A DNA stretch of 64,000 nt from Planomonospora venezuelensis (lineage in GTDB: Bacteria; Actinomycetota; Actinomycetes; Streptosporangiales; Streptosporangiaceae): positions 111,192 to 175,191 of the forward strand of contig NZ_JACHJJ010000017.1 in NCBI RefSeq assembly GCF_014203605.1. Direction: 5' to 3'. Under the pieces are notes generated by a model, which was given only the letters and a program-made list of their open reading frames with translations, was not told the origin of the DNA and did no database searches. Shown here piece after piece: positions 30,121-38,915 of this stretch. Position numbers and translations under genes: made by a program. Positions within the stretch are counted from its first letter, which is position 1. Every line of letters begins with the position of its first letter.

Positions 30121-30269
30121 TGCGCCGATCCCGGTAGAAGCACCCCCGAAAGAACGTTTCTTTAGATATCGGGAACTATCTTCTTTACTCGCGCTTTATC
30201 TATACAAAGCCAGGTACATGCGCTCGGGGGAGCGCGCTTCACCACGCCACAGGGGGATTCCACACGCCG
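30121..30269 (+). promoter_or_regulatory. AT-rich island with the near-palindrome GAAAGAACGTTTCTTTAG upstream of the nfeD-flotillin operon; candidate promoter and operator
   Basis: ..CCGAAAGAACGTTTCTTTAGATATCGGGAACTATCTTCTTTACTCGCGCTTTATCTATAC.. is strongly GC-depleted relative to its surroundings. Confidence 0.35.
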
Positions 30270-30884
30270 ATGGGCCGGTTCGTCGACGTCGCCTCAGCCT
30301 TTCCCACCGTCCTGTTCAGCTTTCCGCTCGTCGTGGTCGCCGCCTACTGGATCCTCGCCCTCTCCGGCGTGATCGGGCTCGACGGCGACGAGGCCGCCGG
30401 CGGCGCGGAGGCGACCGGCCTGGCCGGCCTCCTGGCGGGTCTCGGGCTCGGCGGCGTACCCGTCACCGTGACCGTCTCGCTGCTGGTCGTCATCGCGTGG
30501 TTCACCAGCCTCGCGGGCTCCACCCTGGTCACCGGGACCCCCGCCCTGACCGCCGTGCTCGTCGCCGCGCTCGCCTGCGCCTGGCTCGGTACCCGCCTGC
30601 TGACGCTGCCGCTGCGCCGCGCCGTACCGAAGGAGCGCGTCCCCTCCCGCGCCGACTTCGTGGGCCGCACGTGCGTCATCCGCACCGGCCGGGTGTCCGG
30701 GACCTTCGGCCAGGCCGAGGCCACCTCCGCCGACGGCTCCTCCGCCCTCATCCAAGTCCGGCAGACCGGTGACGAGACCTTCCTCGCCGGCGGCACCGCC
30801 CTGATCTTCGCCTACGACGACGACGGCGAATTCTTCTGGGTGACGCCCTACGACGCGGAACTCGACCCCGACCGTCCTCTCTAG
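30270..30884 (+). CDS. NfeD-like (YqiJ/YuaF-type) membrane protein with a C-terminal OB-fold
   Basis: Two or three N-terminal TM helices (VLFSFPLVVVAAYWILALSGVIGL; VTVSLLVVIAWFTSLAG; LTAVLVAALACAWLG), then a beta-rich soluble domain (FVGRTCVIRTGRVSGTFGQAEATSADGSSALIQVRQTG), directly upstream of a flotillin gene. Confidence 0.7.
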   Translation: MGRFVDVASAFPTVLFSFPLVVVAAYWILALSGVIGLDGDEAAGGAEATGLAGLLAGLGLGGVPVTVTVSLLVVIAWFTSLAGSTLVTGTPALTAVLVAALACAWLGTRLLTLPLRRAVPKERVPSRADFVGRTCVIRTGRVSGTFGQAEATSADGSSALIQVRQTGDETFLAGGTALIFAYDDDGEFFWVTPYDAELDPDRPL

Positions 30885-30895
30885 CGAAGGACCAC

Positions 30896-33106
30896 ATGGA
30901 CGTCATCTCCACCGGTTTCGGCATCCTGCTCGCGCTCGCCCTGCTCATCGCCGTCGCACTCGCGATCATGGTCAGCCGCCTGTTCAACAAGGTCGAACAG
31001 GGCAAGGCGCTCATCGTCTCCAAGATCAACAAGGTCGACGTCACCTTCACCGGAGCGATCGTGCTGCCCGTGCTGCACAAGGCGGAGGTCATGGACATCT
31101 CGGTGAAGACCATCGAGATCGAGCGGACCGGCCGCGAGGGGCTGATCTGCCGGGACAACATCCGCGCCGACATCCGGATCACCTTCTTCGTCCGGGTCAA
31201 CAAGACCGCCGAGGACGTCGTCAAGGTCGCCCAGGCCATCGGCACCGCCCGGGCCAGCGACTCCGAGACGCTGCAGGAGCTGTTCAACGCCAAGTTCTCC
31301 GAGGCGCTGAAGACCGTCGGCAAGCAGCTCGACTTCGTCGACCTCTACACCCAGCGCGACCGGTTCCGCGACCAGATCATCCAGGTCATCGGCACCGACC
31401 TGAACGGCTACAGCCTGGAGGACGCGGCGATCGACTACCTGGAGCAGACCTCGCTGCTCTCCCTTGACAAGAACAACATCCTCGACGCCCAGGGCATCCG
31501 GAAGATCACCGAGCTGACCGCGATCGAGCACGTGCGGACCAACGACTTCCAGCGGCGCGAGGAGAAGGAGATCACCCGCCAGAACGTGGACGCCCGCGAG
31601 GCGATCCTCGAACTGCAGCGACGCCAGGTCGACGCGGAGATCAAGCAGAAGCGCGAGATCGAGACCCTGCGGGCCCGCGAGGAGGCGGAGATCGCCCGGG
31701 TCCAGGCCGAGGAGCGGCTCAAGGCGCAGGCCGCCGACCTGCGCACCCAGGAGCAGCTCGGCATCCAGCAGGAGAATCAGGCCCGCGAGATCGCCGTGGC
31801 GGCCAAGAACCGCGAGCGGGTCATCGCCATCGAGAGCGAGCGCATCGAGAAGGACCGCATGCTGGAGGTCATCTCCCGCGAGCGCGAGACCGAGCTGTCG
31901 CGCATCTCCAAGGACAAGGAGGTCGAGGGCGAGAAGCGCTCGATCGCCGAAGTGGTCCGCGAGCGGATCGCGGTCGAGAAGACCGTCGCCGAGCAGGAGG
32001 AGAACATCAAGCGCCTGCGGGTGGTCGAGGAGGCCGAGCGGACCCGCCAAGCCGTGATCATCCAGGCCGAGGCCGAGGCCCAGGAGAACCTGGTCAAGGA
32101 CATCAAGGCCGCCGAGGCCGCCGAGGCGGCCTCCAAGCACAGGGCGCGCGAGGCGCTGGTGCTCGCCGAGTCGCGCCAGCAGGCCGCCGAGCTCGACGCC
32201 CGCGCCAAGATCCGGCTGGCCGAGGGCATCCAGGCCGAGGCCGCCGCGACCGGCCTGGCCGAGGTGCAGGTGGCCGAGCGCAACGCCGCCGCCATCGAGA
32301 AGGTCGGCCGGGCCGAGGCCGCGGTCGAGCGGGAGAAGGCACTGGCCGCCGCCGAGGGCGAGCAGGCCAGGGCGCACGCCGCCGCCACCGCGATCCGGGA
32401 GAGGCTCAAGGCCGAGGCCGAGGGCGAGCGGGAGAAGGCACTGGCCGAGGCCGCGCTGATCGGAGAGAGGCTGAAGGCCGAGGCCGAGGGCCTCACCGAG
32501 AAGGCCGCGGCGATGGCCGCGCTGGACGACGCGAGCCGCGGTCACGAGGAGTACCGCCTGCGGCTGGACGCCGAGAAGGAGATCCGCCTGGCCGGCGTCA
32601 CCTCCCAGGTCAAGCTCGCCGAGGCGCAGGCCGCGGTGCTCGCCGCCGGCCTGGAGAAGGCCAACATCGACATCGTCGGCGGCGACAGCGTGTTCTTCGA
32701 CCGGCTGGTCGGCGCGGTCACGATGGGCAAGGCCGTGGACGGCTTCGTGGAGGGCTCCGGGGTGGTCCGCACGCTCGCCGGGCCGTACCTGGACGGGTCG
32801 CAGAGCCTGCCCGCCGACCTCTCCCGGGCCCTCGGCTCGCTGGGCAGCGGCGACGTGCGGGACCTGTCGCTCTCGGCGCTGCTGGTCAGGCTGATGGGCG
32901 AGGGCGGCCCCGAGGGCGCCCGGCTGCGCGAGCTGCTCGGCACCGCGACGTCCGCGGGGACCTCCCCGGCGGCGTCCACGGCGGCGTCCACGGTGACCGC
33001 GACGGCCGTGGCCCCCGCCACAGTGACCCCCGCCGCCGCGGTCGTGACGGTCCCGGGCAACGCCGCCAACGGCCCCGCCCCGGTCCTCGACGCGGGCCGG
33101 GAGTGA
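30896..33106 (+). CDS. Flotillin-family SPFH/band-7 protein (FloT/YqiK-like)
   Basis: N-terminal TM, then SPFH domain (LIVSKINKVDVTFTGAIVLPV..DISVKTIEIERTGREGLICRDNIRADIRITFFVRVN), about 350 aa of E/A/R/K-rich coiled-coil and an Ala/Thr/Pro-rich tail; 736 aa. Confidence 0.85.
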   Translation: MDVISTGFGILLALALLIAVALAIMVSRLFNKVEQGKALIVSKINKVDVTFTGAIVLPVLHKAEVMDISVKTIEIERTGREGLICRDNIRADIRITFFVRVNKTAEDVVKVAQAIGTARASDSETLQELFNAKFSEALKTVGKQLDFVDLYTQRDRFRDQIIQVIGTDLNGYSLEDAAIDYLEQTSLLSLDKNNILDAQGIRKITELTAIEHVRTNDFQRREEKEITRQNVDAREAILELQRRQVDAEIKQKREIETLRAREEAEIARVQAEERLKAQAADLRTQEQLGIQQENQAREIAVAAKNRERVIAIESERIEKDRMLEVISRERETELSRISKDKEVEGEKRSIAEVVRERIAVEKTVAEQEENIKRLRVVEEAERTRQAVIIQAEAEAQENLVKDIKAAEAAEAASKHRAREALVLAESRQQAAELDARAKIRLAEGIQAEAAATGLAEVQVAERNAAAIEKVGRAEAAVEREKALAAAEGEQARAHAAATAIRERLKAEAEGEREKALAEAALIGERLKAEAEGLTEKAAAMAALDDASRGHEEYRLRLDAEKEIRLAGVTSQVKLAEAQAAVLAAGLEKANIDIVGGDSVFFDRLVGAVTMGKAVDGFVEGSGVVRTLAGPYLDGSQSLPADLSRALGSLGSGDVRDLSLSALLVRLMGEGGPEGARLRELLGTATSAGTSPAASTAASTVTATAVAPATVTPAAAVVTVPGNAANGPAPVLDAGRE

Positions 33107-36100
33107 CACCCGCGGTGACCCTCACCGAGACCACGAGCACGACGGAGCAGCCGCTGGACGCGGGCACCTACGAGGTGCTCCGCGCCCGGCTCGCCGAACA
33201 GGCCGCGGAGCTGGCCCGGCGGGCCGAGGCGCTCAACGCCCGGCGCCTGGACGTCTTCGGCGGGACCGAGCTCCGCCTGATCGGCACCGAGCGGATCCGC
33301 ACCGAGAACAACTGCGTGCCCCGCGACATCGTCTCCATCGGCGACCTGATGCTCTTCGGCTACAACGTGTTCATCGGGCTGAAGCCGGAGACCGCCGTCG
33401 ACGACGTCTTCTCCGTGCACCGGTTCAGCCGGGACGGCGACGCCGTCCGCTTCGACACCGATCCCGGCGCCGAGCGGCTCCTGCGCCATCCGCAGTTCGA
33501 GCGGGACTTCGCCGAGCTCTACCGGTACTACCGGCAGACCCGGCTGCTCCAGCTCCGCCGGGTCGAGGGCAGGCTGCTGGCCGTCTTCCGGACCGGCCCG
33601 CAGGACATCCGGGTCCTGCGCTGGCAGATCGGGGCGGACGGCTCGCTCGCCTACCTCGACGATCGCGGCGAGCGCGACCACGTCTTCCCCGCCTCGCACG
33701 ACTTCGAGTGGACCCGGACCACCCGCGACGACCACGTGCCCGGCCGCCACCCGCACATCTCGATCCAGGGCGAGGTGTTCGTCGAGACCGTCGGCGGCGA
33801 CCTCACCATCAAGGTCGAGAACAACACGGAGACCGGCGAGGGCGTCTACCGGGAGCCGGTCGACGAGCCGCTGCAGAGCCTCGCCGACGCCGAGGTGCTG
33901 CACGCCAGGGTCGGCCCGCTGATCCTGCTGCGCATCCGGCCCTACAACGAGACCGGATGGCGGCACCTGGTCTTCAACACCCGGACCAGGGACGTCGTAC
34001 GGCTGGACGGCATCGGCCAGGCCTGCCGCCGGCTCCCCGAGGACCAGGGGATCATCTTCCCCGGCGGCTACCACCTGTCCACCGGGGTGAGCAAGACCTT
34101 CGACACCGACGTCACCGGCCTGGAGTTCGAGCGGGTCGTCCGCTCGGCCAACGGCGAGGACGTGCTCTACGTGTTCCACGCGCGGGCCGACGGCCGGTCG
34201 CTGCTGCTGCCGTACAACGTGATCCGCAAGCAGGTCGCGACGCCGATCCCCTGCCACGGCTACTCGCTGTTCGACGACGGCACGCTGGTGGTGTTCCGGG
34301 CCACCTCGGAGGAGCCGGCCCGGGTGCACCCGATGCAGGTGTGGCAGACGCCGTACACCTCCGACGTCTACGCCGCCGCCCGGCCGGCGGGGACCGGGCC
34401 GCTGGAGCGGATCGGCAACGCGGAGCTGGTGCGCGGCATCTCCGACTGCCTCTCGGTGGCCCGCATGGTCGAGGAGACGGCGCCGTCGGCCTCCGTCTTC
34501 GAGGCTCTCATCGCGGCCTGCACCCGCGTGTTCGACCACTACCACTGGCTGGGCGACCACGACCTGCGCGGGCCGGTGACCGAGGTCAGGGCGACCGCCG
34601 AGCAGGTGCTCGACGAGTTCGAGAAGGTCCGCTCGCTCACCGGCCAGGCCGCGGAGGCGCTGGAGGCCGCCGCCGGGGAGATCGCCTCCCTCATCCGACG
34701 GTCGCACGGCGAGCCGGCCCGCTCCGCCGCCGAGTGGGTCACCCGGATCTCCGAGCTCCGCCGGGCCCAGGGGCACCTGGCGGGCCTCCGCGAGCTGCGC
34801 TACGCCGACACCGGCCGGATCGACCGGCTGGACGCCGAACTGACGGCGGAGCTCGGCACCGCGGCACGGCGTGCGACCGGCTTCCTGCAGGGCGCGGACG
34901 CCTTCACCGGCTACCGCTCCGAGGTCGAGACGCTGGCCGCGGAGGCCGGGACCGCCGCCACCACGGCCGAGGCGGCGGGAGTCGCCGAGCGCCTGGCCGT
35001 GCAGGCCCGGGGCCTGGAGGTCGTGATCGAGGTGGTCGGCACACTCGACATCGCCGACGCGGGAGCGCGCACCGCGGTCCTGGAGCGGATCGGCGAGGTC
35101 CTCGGCGGGGTCAACCGGGCCCGGGCCGCCCTGGACGCGCGCCGGCGCGAGCTGCTGGCGACCGAGGGACGCGCCGCCTTCGCCGCCGAGTTCGCCCTGC
35201 TGGGGCAGGCGATCACCGGCGCCCTGGCCATGGCCGACACCCCCGACCGGTGCGACGAGCAGCTCGGCCGGCTGATGCTGCAGCTGGAGAACCTGGAGTC
35301 GCGCTTCGCCGAGTTCGACGACTTCCTCACCCAGCTGGGCACCAGGCGCGAGGACGTCTACGAGGCGTTCTCCTCCCGGCGGCAGGCGCTGCTGGACGAG
35401 CGTGCCCGCCGGGCCGACCGGCTGGCCGGCTCGGCGGACCGGATCCTCCTCGGCGTGCGGCGCCGGGCGGCCTCGTTCGGCTCGGCGGACGAGGTCAACA
35501 CCTACTTCGCCTCCGACCCGATGGTGGCCAAGCTGCACGCGGTCGCCGGGGAACTGCGCGAGCTGGGCGAAGCGGTCCGCGCCGAGGAGCTGGAGGGGTG
35601 GATCAAGTCCGCCCGCCAGGAGGCCGGGCGCGCCCTGCGCGACCGCCTCGACCTCTACGGCGACGGCGGCGGGACCATCCGGCTGGGCCGGCACCGGTTC
35701 GCGGTCAACACCCAGGCCGCCGACCTGACGCTGGTCCCGCACGAGGACCGGATGGTGTTCGCCGTCACCGGGACCGACTACCGCTCCCCCGTCGGCGATC
35801 CCGCGTTCGAGGCGAGCCGGCCGTTCTGGTCCCAGCTGCTGGTCTCGGAGTCGCCGGAGGTCTACCGGGGCGAGTACCTGGCCGCCTCCATCCTGGCCTC
35901 GGCCGAGGCGGGGGCTCCGGCCGCGGACGGCTCCCCCCTCTCGCTCGACGCGCTGCACGAGGCGGCGGTGGCGGAGGGCGGACTGCTCGCGATCGTCCGC
36001 CGGGTCGCGGAGAGCCGCTACGACGAGGGCTACGAGCGGGGCGTGCACGACCACGACGCCGCCGCGATCCTGGAGGTCCTGCTCCGCCTGCACTCCGGCG

Positions 36101-38103
36101 CCGGGCTGCTCCGCTATCCGCCGGACGCCCGGGCGGCGGCCCAGCTCTTCTGGGCCTTCGGGACCGGCGAGGCCGAGCGGGCGTCCTGGACCACCAGGGC
36201 GGTCTCGCTCGCGCGGGCCCGCTCCCGGTTCGGCCGCGTGGCCGCGGTGGACGAGATCCGCCGCGACCTCGGCTCCGCCGTCGCGGCGTTCCTGTCCACC
36301 CTGTCGGCACCGTCCCTACCGTCCGCGCCGTCCGTACCCTCTGCGCCGTCCGTACCCTCTGCGCCGTCCGCGCCGGATGGCGCGGACGTCTCCGGGATCG
36401 CCGGGGAGTACCTGTTCGAGGAGCTCGCGGGGGCTCCTGCCGGATTCGTGACGAGCTCCGGCGCCCGGGGGCTGCTGGAGCGCTTCGGCCGGGCGCTGGG
36501 CGCCGCGCGCGCGGAGTTCGAGGACGACCTGCGCGCCCTGGCCGGCGACCTGCCGGCCCGCAGGCGGCTGGCCGAGGCGTGGCTGGGGGCGTTCGAACGC
36601 GCACCCGAGCTGCCGGAGGCGGTGGCCGTGCTCCTGTGCGAGCTGCCCCGCTACGACTCCTCTGCGGCGCTGGGCGCGACCGCCGAGGGCCTGCTCGGCG
36701 CGCATCCGCGCGTCACCGGCCGGAGCCTGGCGGTGCGGCTGGACGAGTTCCTCGCCAGGACCCGGCGGTTCGGGACCGAGCGCGTGCCCGCCTACCGGGA
36801 CTACCTGCGGCGGCGCAACGAGCTGGTCGCCGCGGAGCGCGAGCGGCTGCGGCTGGAGGAGTACCGGCCGAAGGTGATGAGCGCCTTCGTCCGCAACCAG
36901 CTGCTCGACGAGGTCTACCTGCCGCTCATCGGCGACAACCTGGCCAAGCAGCTGGGCGCGAGCGGCGACGCCAGGCGGACCGACCAGATGGGCCTGCTGC
37001 TGCTCGTCTCCCCGCCCGGCTACGGCAAGACGACCCTGATGGAGTACGTCGCGAGCCGTCTCGGCCTGGTCTTCGTGAAGGTCGACGGTCCGGCCCTCGG
37101 CCGCCTCGTCACCTCGCTGGACCCGGCCGAGGCCCCCGACGCGACCTCGCGCCAGGAGGTCGAGAAGATCAACTTCGCCCTGGAGATGGGCAACAACGTC
37201 CTGCTCTACCTCGACGACATCCAGCACACCTCCCCCGAGCTGCTGCAGAAGTTCATCTCGCTCTGCGACGCCCAGCGCCGGATGGAGGGGGTCAGGGACG
37301 GCCGGAGCCGCACCTACGACCTGCGCGGCAAGCGCTTCGCGGTCTGCATGGCGGGCAACCCGTACACGGAGTCGGGCGGCCGGTTCCGCATCCCCGACAT
37401 GCTCGCCAACCGGGCCGACGTCTGGAACCTCGGCGACGTACTCTCAGGCAGGGAGGAGGTGTTCGCACTGAGTTACGTCGACAACGCGCTCACCGCCAAC
37501 CCCGTCCTCGCCCCGCTCTCCACCCGGGACCGCGACGACGTCCGCCTGCTCGTACGGCTGGCGCAGGGCGACCCCGCCGTCCGCGCCGACCGGCTCTCCC
37601 ACCCCTACTCGCCGGTCGAGCTGGAGCAGGTCCTCGCGGTCCTGCGCAAGCTGCTCCGCGTCCAGCGGGTGGTGCTGGCCGTCAACCAGGCCTACATCGC
37701 CTCGGCCGCCCGGTCCGACGGCTCCCGGACGGAACCGCCGTTCCAGCTCCAGGGGTCCTACCGGAACATGGCCAAGCTCGCCGCGCGGATCGTCCCCGTG
37801 ATGAACGACGCCGAACTGGAGGCGGTCATCGACGACCACTATCTCGCCGAAGCCCAGACCCTCGCCTCCGGCGCCGAGGCCAGCCTCCTGAAGCTGGCCG
37901 AGCTGCGGGGGACGCTCACCGCCGCGCAGGCCGCGCGGTGGGCCGAGGTCAAGGCCGCCTACGTGCGCTCGGCGGCGCTCGGCGGCACGGAGGACGACCC
38001 GGTGACCCGGGCCGTCGGCGCCGTCGGGCTGCTCGCCGACCGGGTCAGCACCGCCATCGGGCAGGCCGCCGACCGGCTCGCGCCGGAAGGGCCGCGCCGG
38101 TGA
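33103..38103 (+). CDS. Giant (1,666-aa) cytoplasmic protein with a C-terminal AAA+/P-loop ATPase module
   Basis: GTGA overlap with the flotillin stop. N-terminal about 450 aa beta-rich, central about 800 aa helical. C-terminal Walker A LLLVSPPGYGKTTLMEY (about 37021-37038), Walker B NNVLLYLDDIQH, sensor-like FAVCMAGNPYTESGG; no TM segments. Confidence 0.75.
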   Translation: MTPAVTLTETTSTTEQPLDAGTYEVLRARLAEQAAELARRAEALNARRLDVFGGTELRLIGTERIRTENNCVPRDIVSIGDLMLFGYNVFIGLKPETAVDDVFSVHRFSRDGDAVRFDTDPGAERLLRHPQFERDFAELYRYYRQTRLLQLRRVEGRLLAVFRTGPQDIRVLRWQIGADGSLAYLDDRGERDHVFPASHDFEWTRTTRDDHVPGRHPHISIQGEVFVETVGGDLTIKVENNTETGEGVYREPVDEPLQSLADAEVLHARVGPLILLRIRPYNETGWRHLVFNTRTRDVVRLDGIGQACRRLPEDQGIIFPGGYHLSTGVSKTFDTDVTGLEFERVVRSANGEDVLYVFHARADGRSLLLPYNVIRKQVATPIPCHGYSLFDDGTLVVFRATSEEPARVHPMQVWQTPYTSDVYAAARPAGTGPLERIGNAELVRGISDCLSVARMVEETAPSASVFEALIAACTRVFDHYHWLGDHDLRGPVTEVRATAEQVLDEFEKVRSLTGQAAEALEAAAGEIASLIRRSHGEPARSAAEWVTRISELRRAQGHLAGLRELRYADTGRIDRLDAELTAELGTAARRATGFLQGADAFTGYRSEVETLAAEAGTAATTAEAAGVAERLAVQARGLEVVIEVVGTLDIADAGARTAVLERIGEVLGGVNRARAALDARRRELLATEGRAAFAAEFALLGQAITGALAMADTPDRCDEQLGRLMLQLENLESRFAEFDDFLTQLGTRREDVYEAFSSRRQALLDERARRADRLAGSADRILLGVRRRAASFGSADEVNTYFASDPMVAKLHAVAGELRELGEAVRAEELEGWIKSARQEAGRALRDRLDLYGDGGGTIRLGRHRFAVNTQAADLTLVPHEDRMVFAVTGTDYRSPVGDPAFEASRPFWSQLLVSESPEVYRGEYLAASILASAEAGAPAADGSPLSLDALHEAAVAEGGLLAIVRRVAESRYDEGYERGVHDHDAAAILEVLLRLHSGAGLLRYPPDARAAAQLFWAFGTGEAERASWTTRAVSLARARSRFGRVAAVDEIRRDLGSAVAAFLSTLSAPSLPSAPSVPSAPSVPSAPSAPDGADVSGIAGEYLFEELAGAPAGFVTSSGARGLLERFGRALGAARAEFEDDLRALAGDLPARRRLAEAWLGAFERAPELPEAVAVLLCELPRYDSSAALGATAEGLLGAHPRVTGRSLAVRLDEFLARTRRFGTERVPAYRDYLRRRNELVAAERERLRLEEYRPKVMSAFVRNQLLDEVYLPLIGDNLAKQLGASGDARRTDQMGLLLLVSPPGYGKTTLMEYVASRLGLVFVKVDGPALGRLVTSLDPAEAPDATSRQEVEKINFALEMGNNVLLYLDDIQHTSPELLQKFISLCDAQRRMEGVRDGRSRTYDLRGKRFAVCMAGNPYTESGGRFRIPDMLANRADVWNLGDVLSGREEVFALSYVDNALTANPVLAPLSTRDRDDVRLLVRLAQGDPAVRADRLSHPYSPVELEQVLAVLRKLLRVQRVVLAVNQAYIASAARSDGSRTEPPFQLQGSYRNMAKLAARIVPVMNDAELEAVIDDHYLAEAQTLASGAEASLLKLAELRGTLTAAQAARWAEVKAAYVRSAALGGTEDDPVTRAVGAVGLLADRVSTAIGQAADRLAPEGPRR

Positions 38104-38915
38104 CGGCCGGACGGGTCGGCGGCGCGGTCCTGTCCGCGATCCTCGCCGGGGCCGTCCTCTCGGGCGCCCCCGGCACCGCCGGGACCGCCCGCGCCGCGGC
38201 GGGCTACCCGGTCGGGAACGCTCCCGTGCTCACCCACAACCCGCTCTACGGCAGGAGCGTCTTCACGCAGGTCGCGTGCGAGGAGCCGGCGGCCGGGAAG
38301 GGCGGCGCGGCCTCCGCCAGGCGCTACACGCTCGCGGTCGTGAAGTGCCTCGACCGGGTCTGGTCCACCGAGCTGCGCAGGCGGAACCTGCCGTTCCGCA
38401 GGCCGGTGGTCAGGTTCGTCTCCACGAGGAGCCGCGTGTGCGGGGAGAAGTGGCCGAAGGAGACGATCGCGCTCTACTGCAGGGCCGAGCGGAGCCTGAA
38501 CTTCCCCGTCGGCTCCGGCCTGCTCGACAACGATTCGGACCTGTTCCTGCTGATCGTGGCCGCCCACGAGTACGCCCACCACGTGCAGAACCTCTCCGGG
38601 ATCATGAAGGGCAACGACGGGCTGGCCTACCGGAACAAGAAGGAGCTGAACGAGCAGGCCCGCAGGCAGGAACTGCAGGCCGAGTGTCTGGCCGGGGCCT
38701 TCGCCGGCTCCGTCTGGACGTCGCTGGCGCGCACCGCGGCCGACTGGCGGCTGCTCCTGAGGAGCCAGAAGGCGACGGGCGACGACTCCGGCGGGCGCGG
38801 CGTCCGCGACCACGGGAAGGGATCGAGCATCGTCTACTGGACGAACCGCGGATTCAGGGCGGCCTCGTCGTCGGCGTGCAACACCTGGACCGCCGCGTCC
38901 GCCCGGGTGTCCTGA
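38100..38915 (+). CDS. YpfJ-type putative neutral zinc metallopeptidase, secreted or membrane-anchored
   Basis: GTGA overlap with the upstream stop. N-terminal signal/anchor (AVLSAILAGAVLSGAPGTAGTARA) and the HExxH-type motif LLIVAAHEYAHHVQN characteristic of the YpfJ family. Confidence 0.7.
   Translation: MTAGRVGGAVLSAILAGAVLSGAPGTAGTARAAAGYPVGNAPVLTHNPLYGRSVFTQVACEEPAAGKGGAASARRYTLAVVKCLDRVWSTELRRRNLPFRRPVVRFVSTRSRVCGEKWPKETIALYCRAERSLNFPVGSGLLDNDSDLFLLIVAAHEYAHHVQNLSGIMKGNDGLAYRNKKELNEQARRQELQAECLAGAFAGSVWTSLARTAADWRLLLRSQKATGDDSGGRGVRDHGKGSSIVYWTNRGFRAASSSACNTWTAASARVS

Follow-up and report, generated by a model that had tools for sequence, protein, structure and literature searches.

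The window analysed here, a 64,000-nt stretch of Planomonospora venezuelensis DNA, contains an operon that encodes in succession a small membrane protein, a flotillin-like protein and a giant cytoplasmic AAA+ protein. The balance of evidence leans slightly towards the giant protein being the soluble ATPase of a three-gene membrane module and acting on the flotillin scaffold. The flotillin gene and the small partner gene are located directly before the giant gene in all 84 informative loci examined; this gene order indicates that the proteins are functionally linked, but it reveals neither mechanism nor substrate. The genes concerned are the following:

30270..30884, + strand: YqiJ/NfeD2-like membrane protein, 204 aa, with about three TM segments and a C-terminal soluble domain
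30896..33106, + strand: flotillin-like SPFH protein, 736 aa (Band_7; YqiK homology)
30989-31420, + strand: SPFH/Band_7 domain, residues 32-175 of the flotillin-like protein
33103..38103, + strand: giant cytoplasmic AAA+ protein, 1666 aa (Pfam and homologs)
38100..38915, + strand: Zn-metallopeptidase, 271 aa, with a hydrophobic N-terminus (PF04228, E 6e-16)

The giant protein and its family

Direct inspection of the GC content by codon position showed that the ORF at 33103..38103 is a genuine coding gene, and the Pfam matches and homologs of like length also confirmed the 1,666-residue reading frame of the original prediction. PF12458 (DUF3686) matched residues 36-481 over the full model length (747.9 bits against a cutoff of 25, E 4e-225), PF25472 (DUF7902) matched with 98 bits against a cutoff of 26 (E 4e-28), and AAA_5/AAA matched residues 1299-1425 (AAA_5 E 4e-6). 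With a central DUF7902, a C-terminal AAA module and a length within the range of about 1600-2000 aa, the protein belongs to the DUF3686/DUF7902/AAA family. More than 6795 homologs were found, and the best 120 of them have lengths of 1594-1775 aa and the same architecture. The identity was 88% with a Planomonospora protein, 65-88% over 1,650 residues across actinomycete orders and 32-45% with gammaproteobacterial members. The distribution of the family is patchy, and Gammaproteobacteria hold two divergent subfamilies.

The giant protein shares with this family the three Pfam signatures, the length class (1600-2060 aa), the operon partners and the motif set, and no essential difference was found. 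It is an ortholog in a family and an operon that have already been described computationally, not experimentally. In the literature found on the DUF3686 family and its partners, there was no experimental work on interaction, localisation, phenotype or ATPase activity for any member.

Domain organization

The regions of the giant protein are located as follows:

33166-33258, + strand: helix preceding the beta-rich domain, residues 22-52
33274..34347, + strand: N-terminal beta-rich domain, residues 58-415, about 28 strands, propeller-like but atypical
34360..35655, + strand: helical region I, residues 420-851, with helices of up to 58 residues
34897-35151, + strand: DUF7902 (Pfam PF25472), residues 599-683, inside helical region I
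35674..36219, + strand: small beta subdomain (858-896) and helical region II (922-1039)
36304..36375, + strand: low-complexity (P-S-x-P-S-A)n linker, residues 1068-1091, an 18-nt tandem repeat (TRF)
36463..36972, + strand: helical pre-AAA domain, residues 1121-1290 (AF2; invariant columns)
36985..37902, + strand: MoxR-type AAA+ module, residues ~1295-1600
37009-37035, + strand: Walker A, GYGK1309TT
37198-37227, + strand: Walker B, LYLD1371-D1372

Analysis of hydrophobic segments bore out the absence of TM segments, which makes the protein cytoplasmic. About 1,250 residues, comprising a beta-rich propeller-like head and helical-bundle arms, precede the AAA+ module. The N-terminal domain is beta-rich, as proposed, and propeller-like but atypical, and no blade repeats were found inside it by hhalign self-comparison. 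Residues K237, E239, N241, T242, E251, Q258, D262 and N350-D353 of the head are invariant. In Foldseek, chains of IFT-A and of nucleoporins were matched weakly. The expected helical middle of about 800 aa was recovered as helical regions I and II and the pre-AAA domain. The stretch with the small beta subdomain and helical region II, matched by no Pfam model, contains an invariant cluster (E916, R922, E924 and G980-x-H982-D983-x-D985, the latter at nt 36040-36057). The linker showed the lowest conservation and the most gaps in the family alignment. The pre-AAA domain includes a 36-residue helix at 1213-1248 in the AF2 model and a conserved FVRNxL...Y...GxN...QxG segment, which is followed by the ATPase.

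The MoxR-type AAA+ module

The C-terminal P-loop ATPase with Walker A, Walker B and an Asn sensor, noticed in the sequence earlier, was supported by Pfam, AF2 and conservation. Sensor-1 is N1419, a beta-hairpin insert (residues 1393-1406) lies ahead of the sensor-1 strand, and the candidates for the Arg finger (R1437, in PDMLANRAD) and for sensor-2 (R1554, in GSYR) were assigned by position. The ATPase is the most conserved region of the giant protein; Walker A and Walker B, whose conservation had been singled out for checking, as well as N1419, R1437 and R1554, show at least 95% conservation or do not vary at all in the family alignment. The nearest structures are the MoxR proteins CbbQ and NorQ, followed by midasin and dynein, in agreement with the suggested MoxR/dynein-like AAA_5 core. 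Together, the Walker A, the sensor-1 Asn, the candidate Arg finger and sensor-2 Arg, the hairpin before sensor-1 and the closest structures place the module in the MoxR/AAA_5 clade. In place of the canonical hhhhDE, the Walker B ends in Asp-Asp throughout the family (LYLD1371-D1372 is invariant), and ATP may therefore be hydrolysed by an unusual chemistry.

MoxR proteins such as CbbQ, NorQ and RavA have about 270-500 aa and normally a VWA/MIDAS partner, which is usual for them, not obligatory. In contrast, the giant protein carries the module fused to a head and arms that together comprise about 1,290 residues, has DD instead of DE in Walker B, and is accompanied by membrane scaffold proteins and no VWA gene: no VWA match was found in any neighbour of the giant gene, and the 77 loci share no additional neighbour. 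Midasin (Rea1) and the dynein heavy chain have six AAA modules per chain, whereas the giant protein has one and contains neither a microtubule-binding stalk nor a MIDAS domain. What they share is the way of working; the giant protein is not a member of their group.

Partner proteins

The hydrophobic segments of the YqiJ-like protein were found at residues 4-39, 53-89 and 84-115, and the GC3 of its gene is 0.94. There was no direct Pfam match for this protein; its profile aligned with E. coli YqiJ with an hhalign probability of 72% (E 3e-5). Its orthologs can be aligned across phyla, and the one from Hymenobacter is annotated as DUF1449, YqiJ family.

The flotillin-like protein starts with a TM segment (residues 1-34). 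Band_7 was matched when the N-terminal 235 aa were scanned alone (E 3e-11, 44 bits against a cutoff of 23.6) and was missed by the full-length scan. Its coiled coil is long, rich in Glu and Ala, and contains 22-aa repeats (66-nt repeats at 32344-32524), and the C-terminus consists of a conserved 'ANIDIVGG...' block and a low-complexity Ala/Thr/Pro tail, with no match to the Pfam 'Flot' C-terminal model. A BLASTP comparison with E. coli YqiK revealed 28% identity over 463 aa (E 1e-36). The SPFH domain, the coiled coil and the YqiK homology assign this partner to the Flotillin/SPFH2 type. The stop of its gene overlaps the start of the giant gene by 4 nt (GTGA), which suggests translational coupling of the two genes.

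Conservation of the gene order

In an 80-locus scan, the flotillin-like gene was located directly upstream of the giant gene in 77 of 77 informative loci, and the YqiJ-like gene immediately preceded the flotillin gene in 76 of them; in the remaining one (L059), the needed sequence is missing. The same order was observed in the closest relative, Planomonospora sp. ID67723, and in six of six distant loci, namely those of Simiduia, Psychrobacter, a metagenome, P. fluorescens pQBR103, Hymenobacter and Deinococcus. The combination with flotillin that the original prediction remarked on recurs in all of these loci. The conserved order spans at least four phyla, and homologs are named from two more.

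Clustering of the flanking ORFs of the 77 loci revealed genus-level synteny and no further conserved neighbour, so a conserved set larger than three genes was rejected. The Zn-metallopeptidase gene, whose GTG start overlaps the stop codon of the giant gene, was considered as a fourth component and also rejected. It was absent from 80 of 80 scanned loci and was found downstream only in Planomonospora sp. ID67723; therefore, it is a lineage-specific passenger outside the conserved module.

The arrangement in the window corresponds to the Band-7/flotillin - YqiJ - AAA+ operon of Ravi et al. 2024 (PMC11237479), where the same operon was independently described and a chaperone-like role in membrane dynamics was proposed. 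The window has no CesT/Tir-PspA pair adjacent to the module, and thus represents the 'abbreviated' operon form, which that work describes as well; the downstream Zn-metallopeptidase gene, confined to its lineage, is a further difference. No PspA gene was found in the scanned parts of the window.

Comparison with other SPFH and NfeD systems

In the HflK/C-FtsH, mitochondrial prohibitin-m-AAA and stomatin-NfeD protease systems, likewise, a scaffold of SPFH proteins, a partner of the NfeD type and an AAA+ machine act, or are encoded, together at a membrane (background in PMC2636767). They differ from the operon of the window in that FtsH is a membrane-anchored classical AAA protease, whereas the giant ATPase is soluble, is a MoxR-clade member and lacks a protease domain; its SPFH partner is of the flotillin type (YqiK-like), not HflK/C. 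The NfeD2-SPFH2 operons yqiJ-yqiK of E. coli and yuaF-floT of B. subtilis are homologous to the first two genes of the module. The E. coli operon, unlike that of the window, ends with yqiK and lacks a gene for a giant ATPase.

Proposed function and alternative explanations

Cages built of SPFH proteins work together with AAA+ machines, HflK/C and FtsH being an example, and SPFH proteins are in turn bound by NfeD proteins. The gene order, which shows a link and not a mechanism, and the MoxR-type module support the interpretation that the connection with flotillin points to a mechanochemical or remodelling role. In the proposed module, composed of the YqiJ/NfeD-like 3-TM protein, the YqiK-like flotillin scaffold and the giant ATPase, the AAA+ modules may assemble into a ring like MoxR proteins, and the head and arms would dock on the cytoplasmic flotillin assembly and the NfeD partner. 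ATP hydrolysis could then drive the assembly, disassembly or reshaping of the scaffold, or the extraction of clients, and the giant ATPase would be to flotillin what Vps4 is to ESCRT-III or FtsH is inside HflK/C cages. Hexamer formation and docking on flotillin are purely hypothetical. The module may protect the envelope, or act against membrane stress, together with PspA/IM30 encoded nearby or elsewhere.

We tentatively suggest a more specific version, in which the giant protein would be the first ATP-driven remodeller known to be dedicated to a flotillin scaffold. A ring-forming MoxR-type motor would grip the flotillin-NfeD cage with its propeller-like head and spectrin/talin-like arms, and would open, close or recycle the cage during membrane damage. 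In a bolder form of this idea, which comes only from the weak IFT-A and nucleoporin similarities seen with Foldseek, the N-terminal ~1,000 propeller-plus-helical residues might be a coat-like module and the triad a bacterial membrane-coat machine.

The function, build-up and turnover of bacterial flotillin assemblies are still unsettled, and no energy-consuming partner of bacterial flotillins has been established so far; the module offers a candidate, since the giant ATPase is genetically locked to flotillin and its NfeD partner and often adjoins PspA. If the remodelling role is correct, bacterial flotillins would gain a defined biochemical cycle analogous to that of Vps4 with ESCRT-III, and a single tractable operon would make flotillin assembly and disassembly, as well as the link of flotillin to the PSP/ESCRT-III membrane-repair system, directly testable. 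Tractable carriers include Pseudoalteromonas, Vibrio, Nonomuraea and, with pQBR103, P. fluorescens.

It is also conceivable, though rather unlikely in our estimation, that the ATPase mainly acts in a Vps4-like manner on polymers of PspA/IM30 (bacterial ESCRT-III), with flotillin and YqiJ serving merely as a membrane platform. A PspA/IM30 gene lies immediately upstream of the module in three of the six distant loci, accompanied in two of these by a CesT/Tir-type gene (DUF2170 / 'chaperone Tir'). The AAA+ associations of PspA have been framed as ESCRT-like (Ravi et al., PMC11237479), and recruitment of PspA by an SPFH protein is reported for B. subtilis (PMC8581546). The PspA neighbourhood and the recruitment of PspA also count in favour of the flotillin-remodelling role proposed above.

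A static scaffold or tether with a regulatory or vestigial ATPase, such as an adaptor gated by nucleotide that connects flotillin domains with clients in the cytoplasm and does not remodel by force, seems improbable. It would agree with the family-wide D-D in Walker B, with the large share of the mass taken by the non-catalytic head and arms, and with the low intrinsic ATPase activity of several MoxR proteins. However, the greatest conservation falls on the ATPase itself, and every nucleotide-site motif is invariant, including sensor-1 and the candidate Arg finger and sensor-2, as one would expect if the active site between subunits is functional.

We judged it very unlikely that the triad serves in anti-phage defence or abortive infection, with the giant ATPase as the sensor of infection and the membrane proteins as the effectors. 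The large size and the combination of an NTPase with a large sensor-like N-terminal region are reminiscent of defence NTPases, and the patchy distribution with its two divergent gammaproteobacterial subfamilies, the flanks that differ between genera, the presence on some megaplasmids (e.g., pQBR103) and the association with the 'phage shock' protein PspA could be read in the same way. However, PspA responds to membrane stress generally, and the level of identity across actinomycete orders is unusually high for a defence gene. No effector domain, whether nuclease, protease, TIR, SIR2 or of another kind, is present in the triad, and the window neighbourhood consists of ordinary chromosomal genes (RF3, oxidoreductase, PP2C, trehalose-type amylases). 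PADLOC (PADLOC-DB 2.0) gave no significant match for the giant protein (best E 0.003-0.008, P-loop only) and none for the three partner proteins. No homolog was found among 50,697 phage records, and 13 of 72,556 plasmid records contained one, mostly megaplasmids, chromids or mislabelled chromosomes.

The NCBI product name of the family ('DNA repair ATPase') and the Pfam description ('ATPase involved in DNA repair') would make the giant protein an SMC/Rad50/RecN-like coiled-coil ATPase. Its long helices and P-loop are superficially SMC-like, weak similarity to the RuvB P-loop was detected (RuvB_N, E 6e-4 in Pfam; E 1e-4 in NCBIfam), and a LexA-family regulator is encoded divergently upstream in the Hymenobacter locus. 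However, its Walker motifs are 60 residues apart within one AAA+ fold (1303-1372), whereas the ABC/SMC type splits them between the N- and C-termini; SMC/Rad50/RecN proteins have such a divided ABC-type head, a signature motif and an antiparallel coiled coil bearing a hinge or hook. As anticipated, no nuclease or helicase motifs were found; Pfam and NCBIfam searches with the whole protein and its segments gave no match to SMC, Rad50, nuclease, helicase or DNA-binding domains, and the RuvB matches are far under the family cutoffs (20 bits against 282-299). The nearest structures are those of MoxR proteins, midasin and dynein, the only conserved neighbours are two membrane proteins, and no paper found gives a basis for the name. 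Since Pfam, NCBIfam and PDB searches with the protein and the family profile yielded P-loop-level similarity alone, a role in DNA repair was rejected as hardly credible, and the database name, carried by thousands of proteins, is most likely a misnomer.

Leader of the operon

Two features were located upstream of the YqiJ-like gene:

30150..30269, + strand: upstream region and 5' leader, aligned with four Streptosporangiaceae loci
30220-30237, + strand: GC stem-loop GCGCTC-GGGG-GAGCGC in the leader

No relevant Rfam family and no match to the sigma-70 consensus were found in the leader, and a terminator scan gave no useful result. The region is AT-rich within a genome of 72% GC. The alignment of the four Streptosporangiaceae loci revealed the invariant elements GGAACTAT and CTTTA(T/C), and a -10-like TATAGT is present in the relatives. 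The RBS is AGGGGGAT. The stems vary in sequence among the four loci, yet they still pair.

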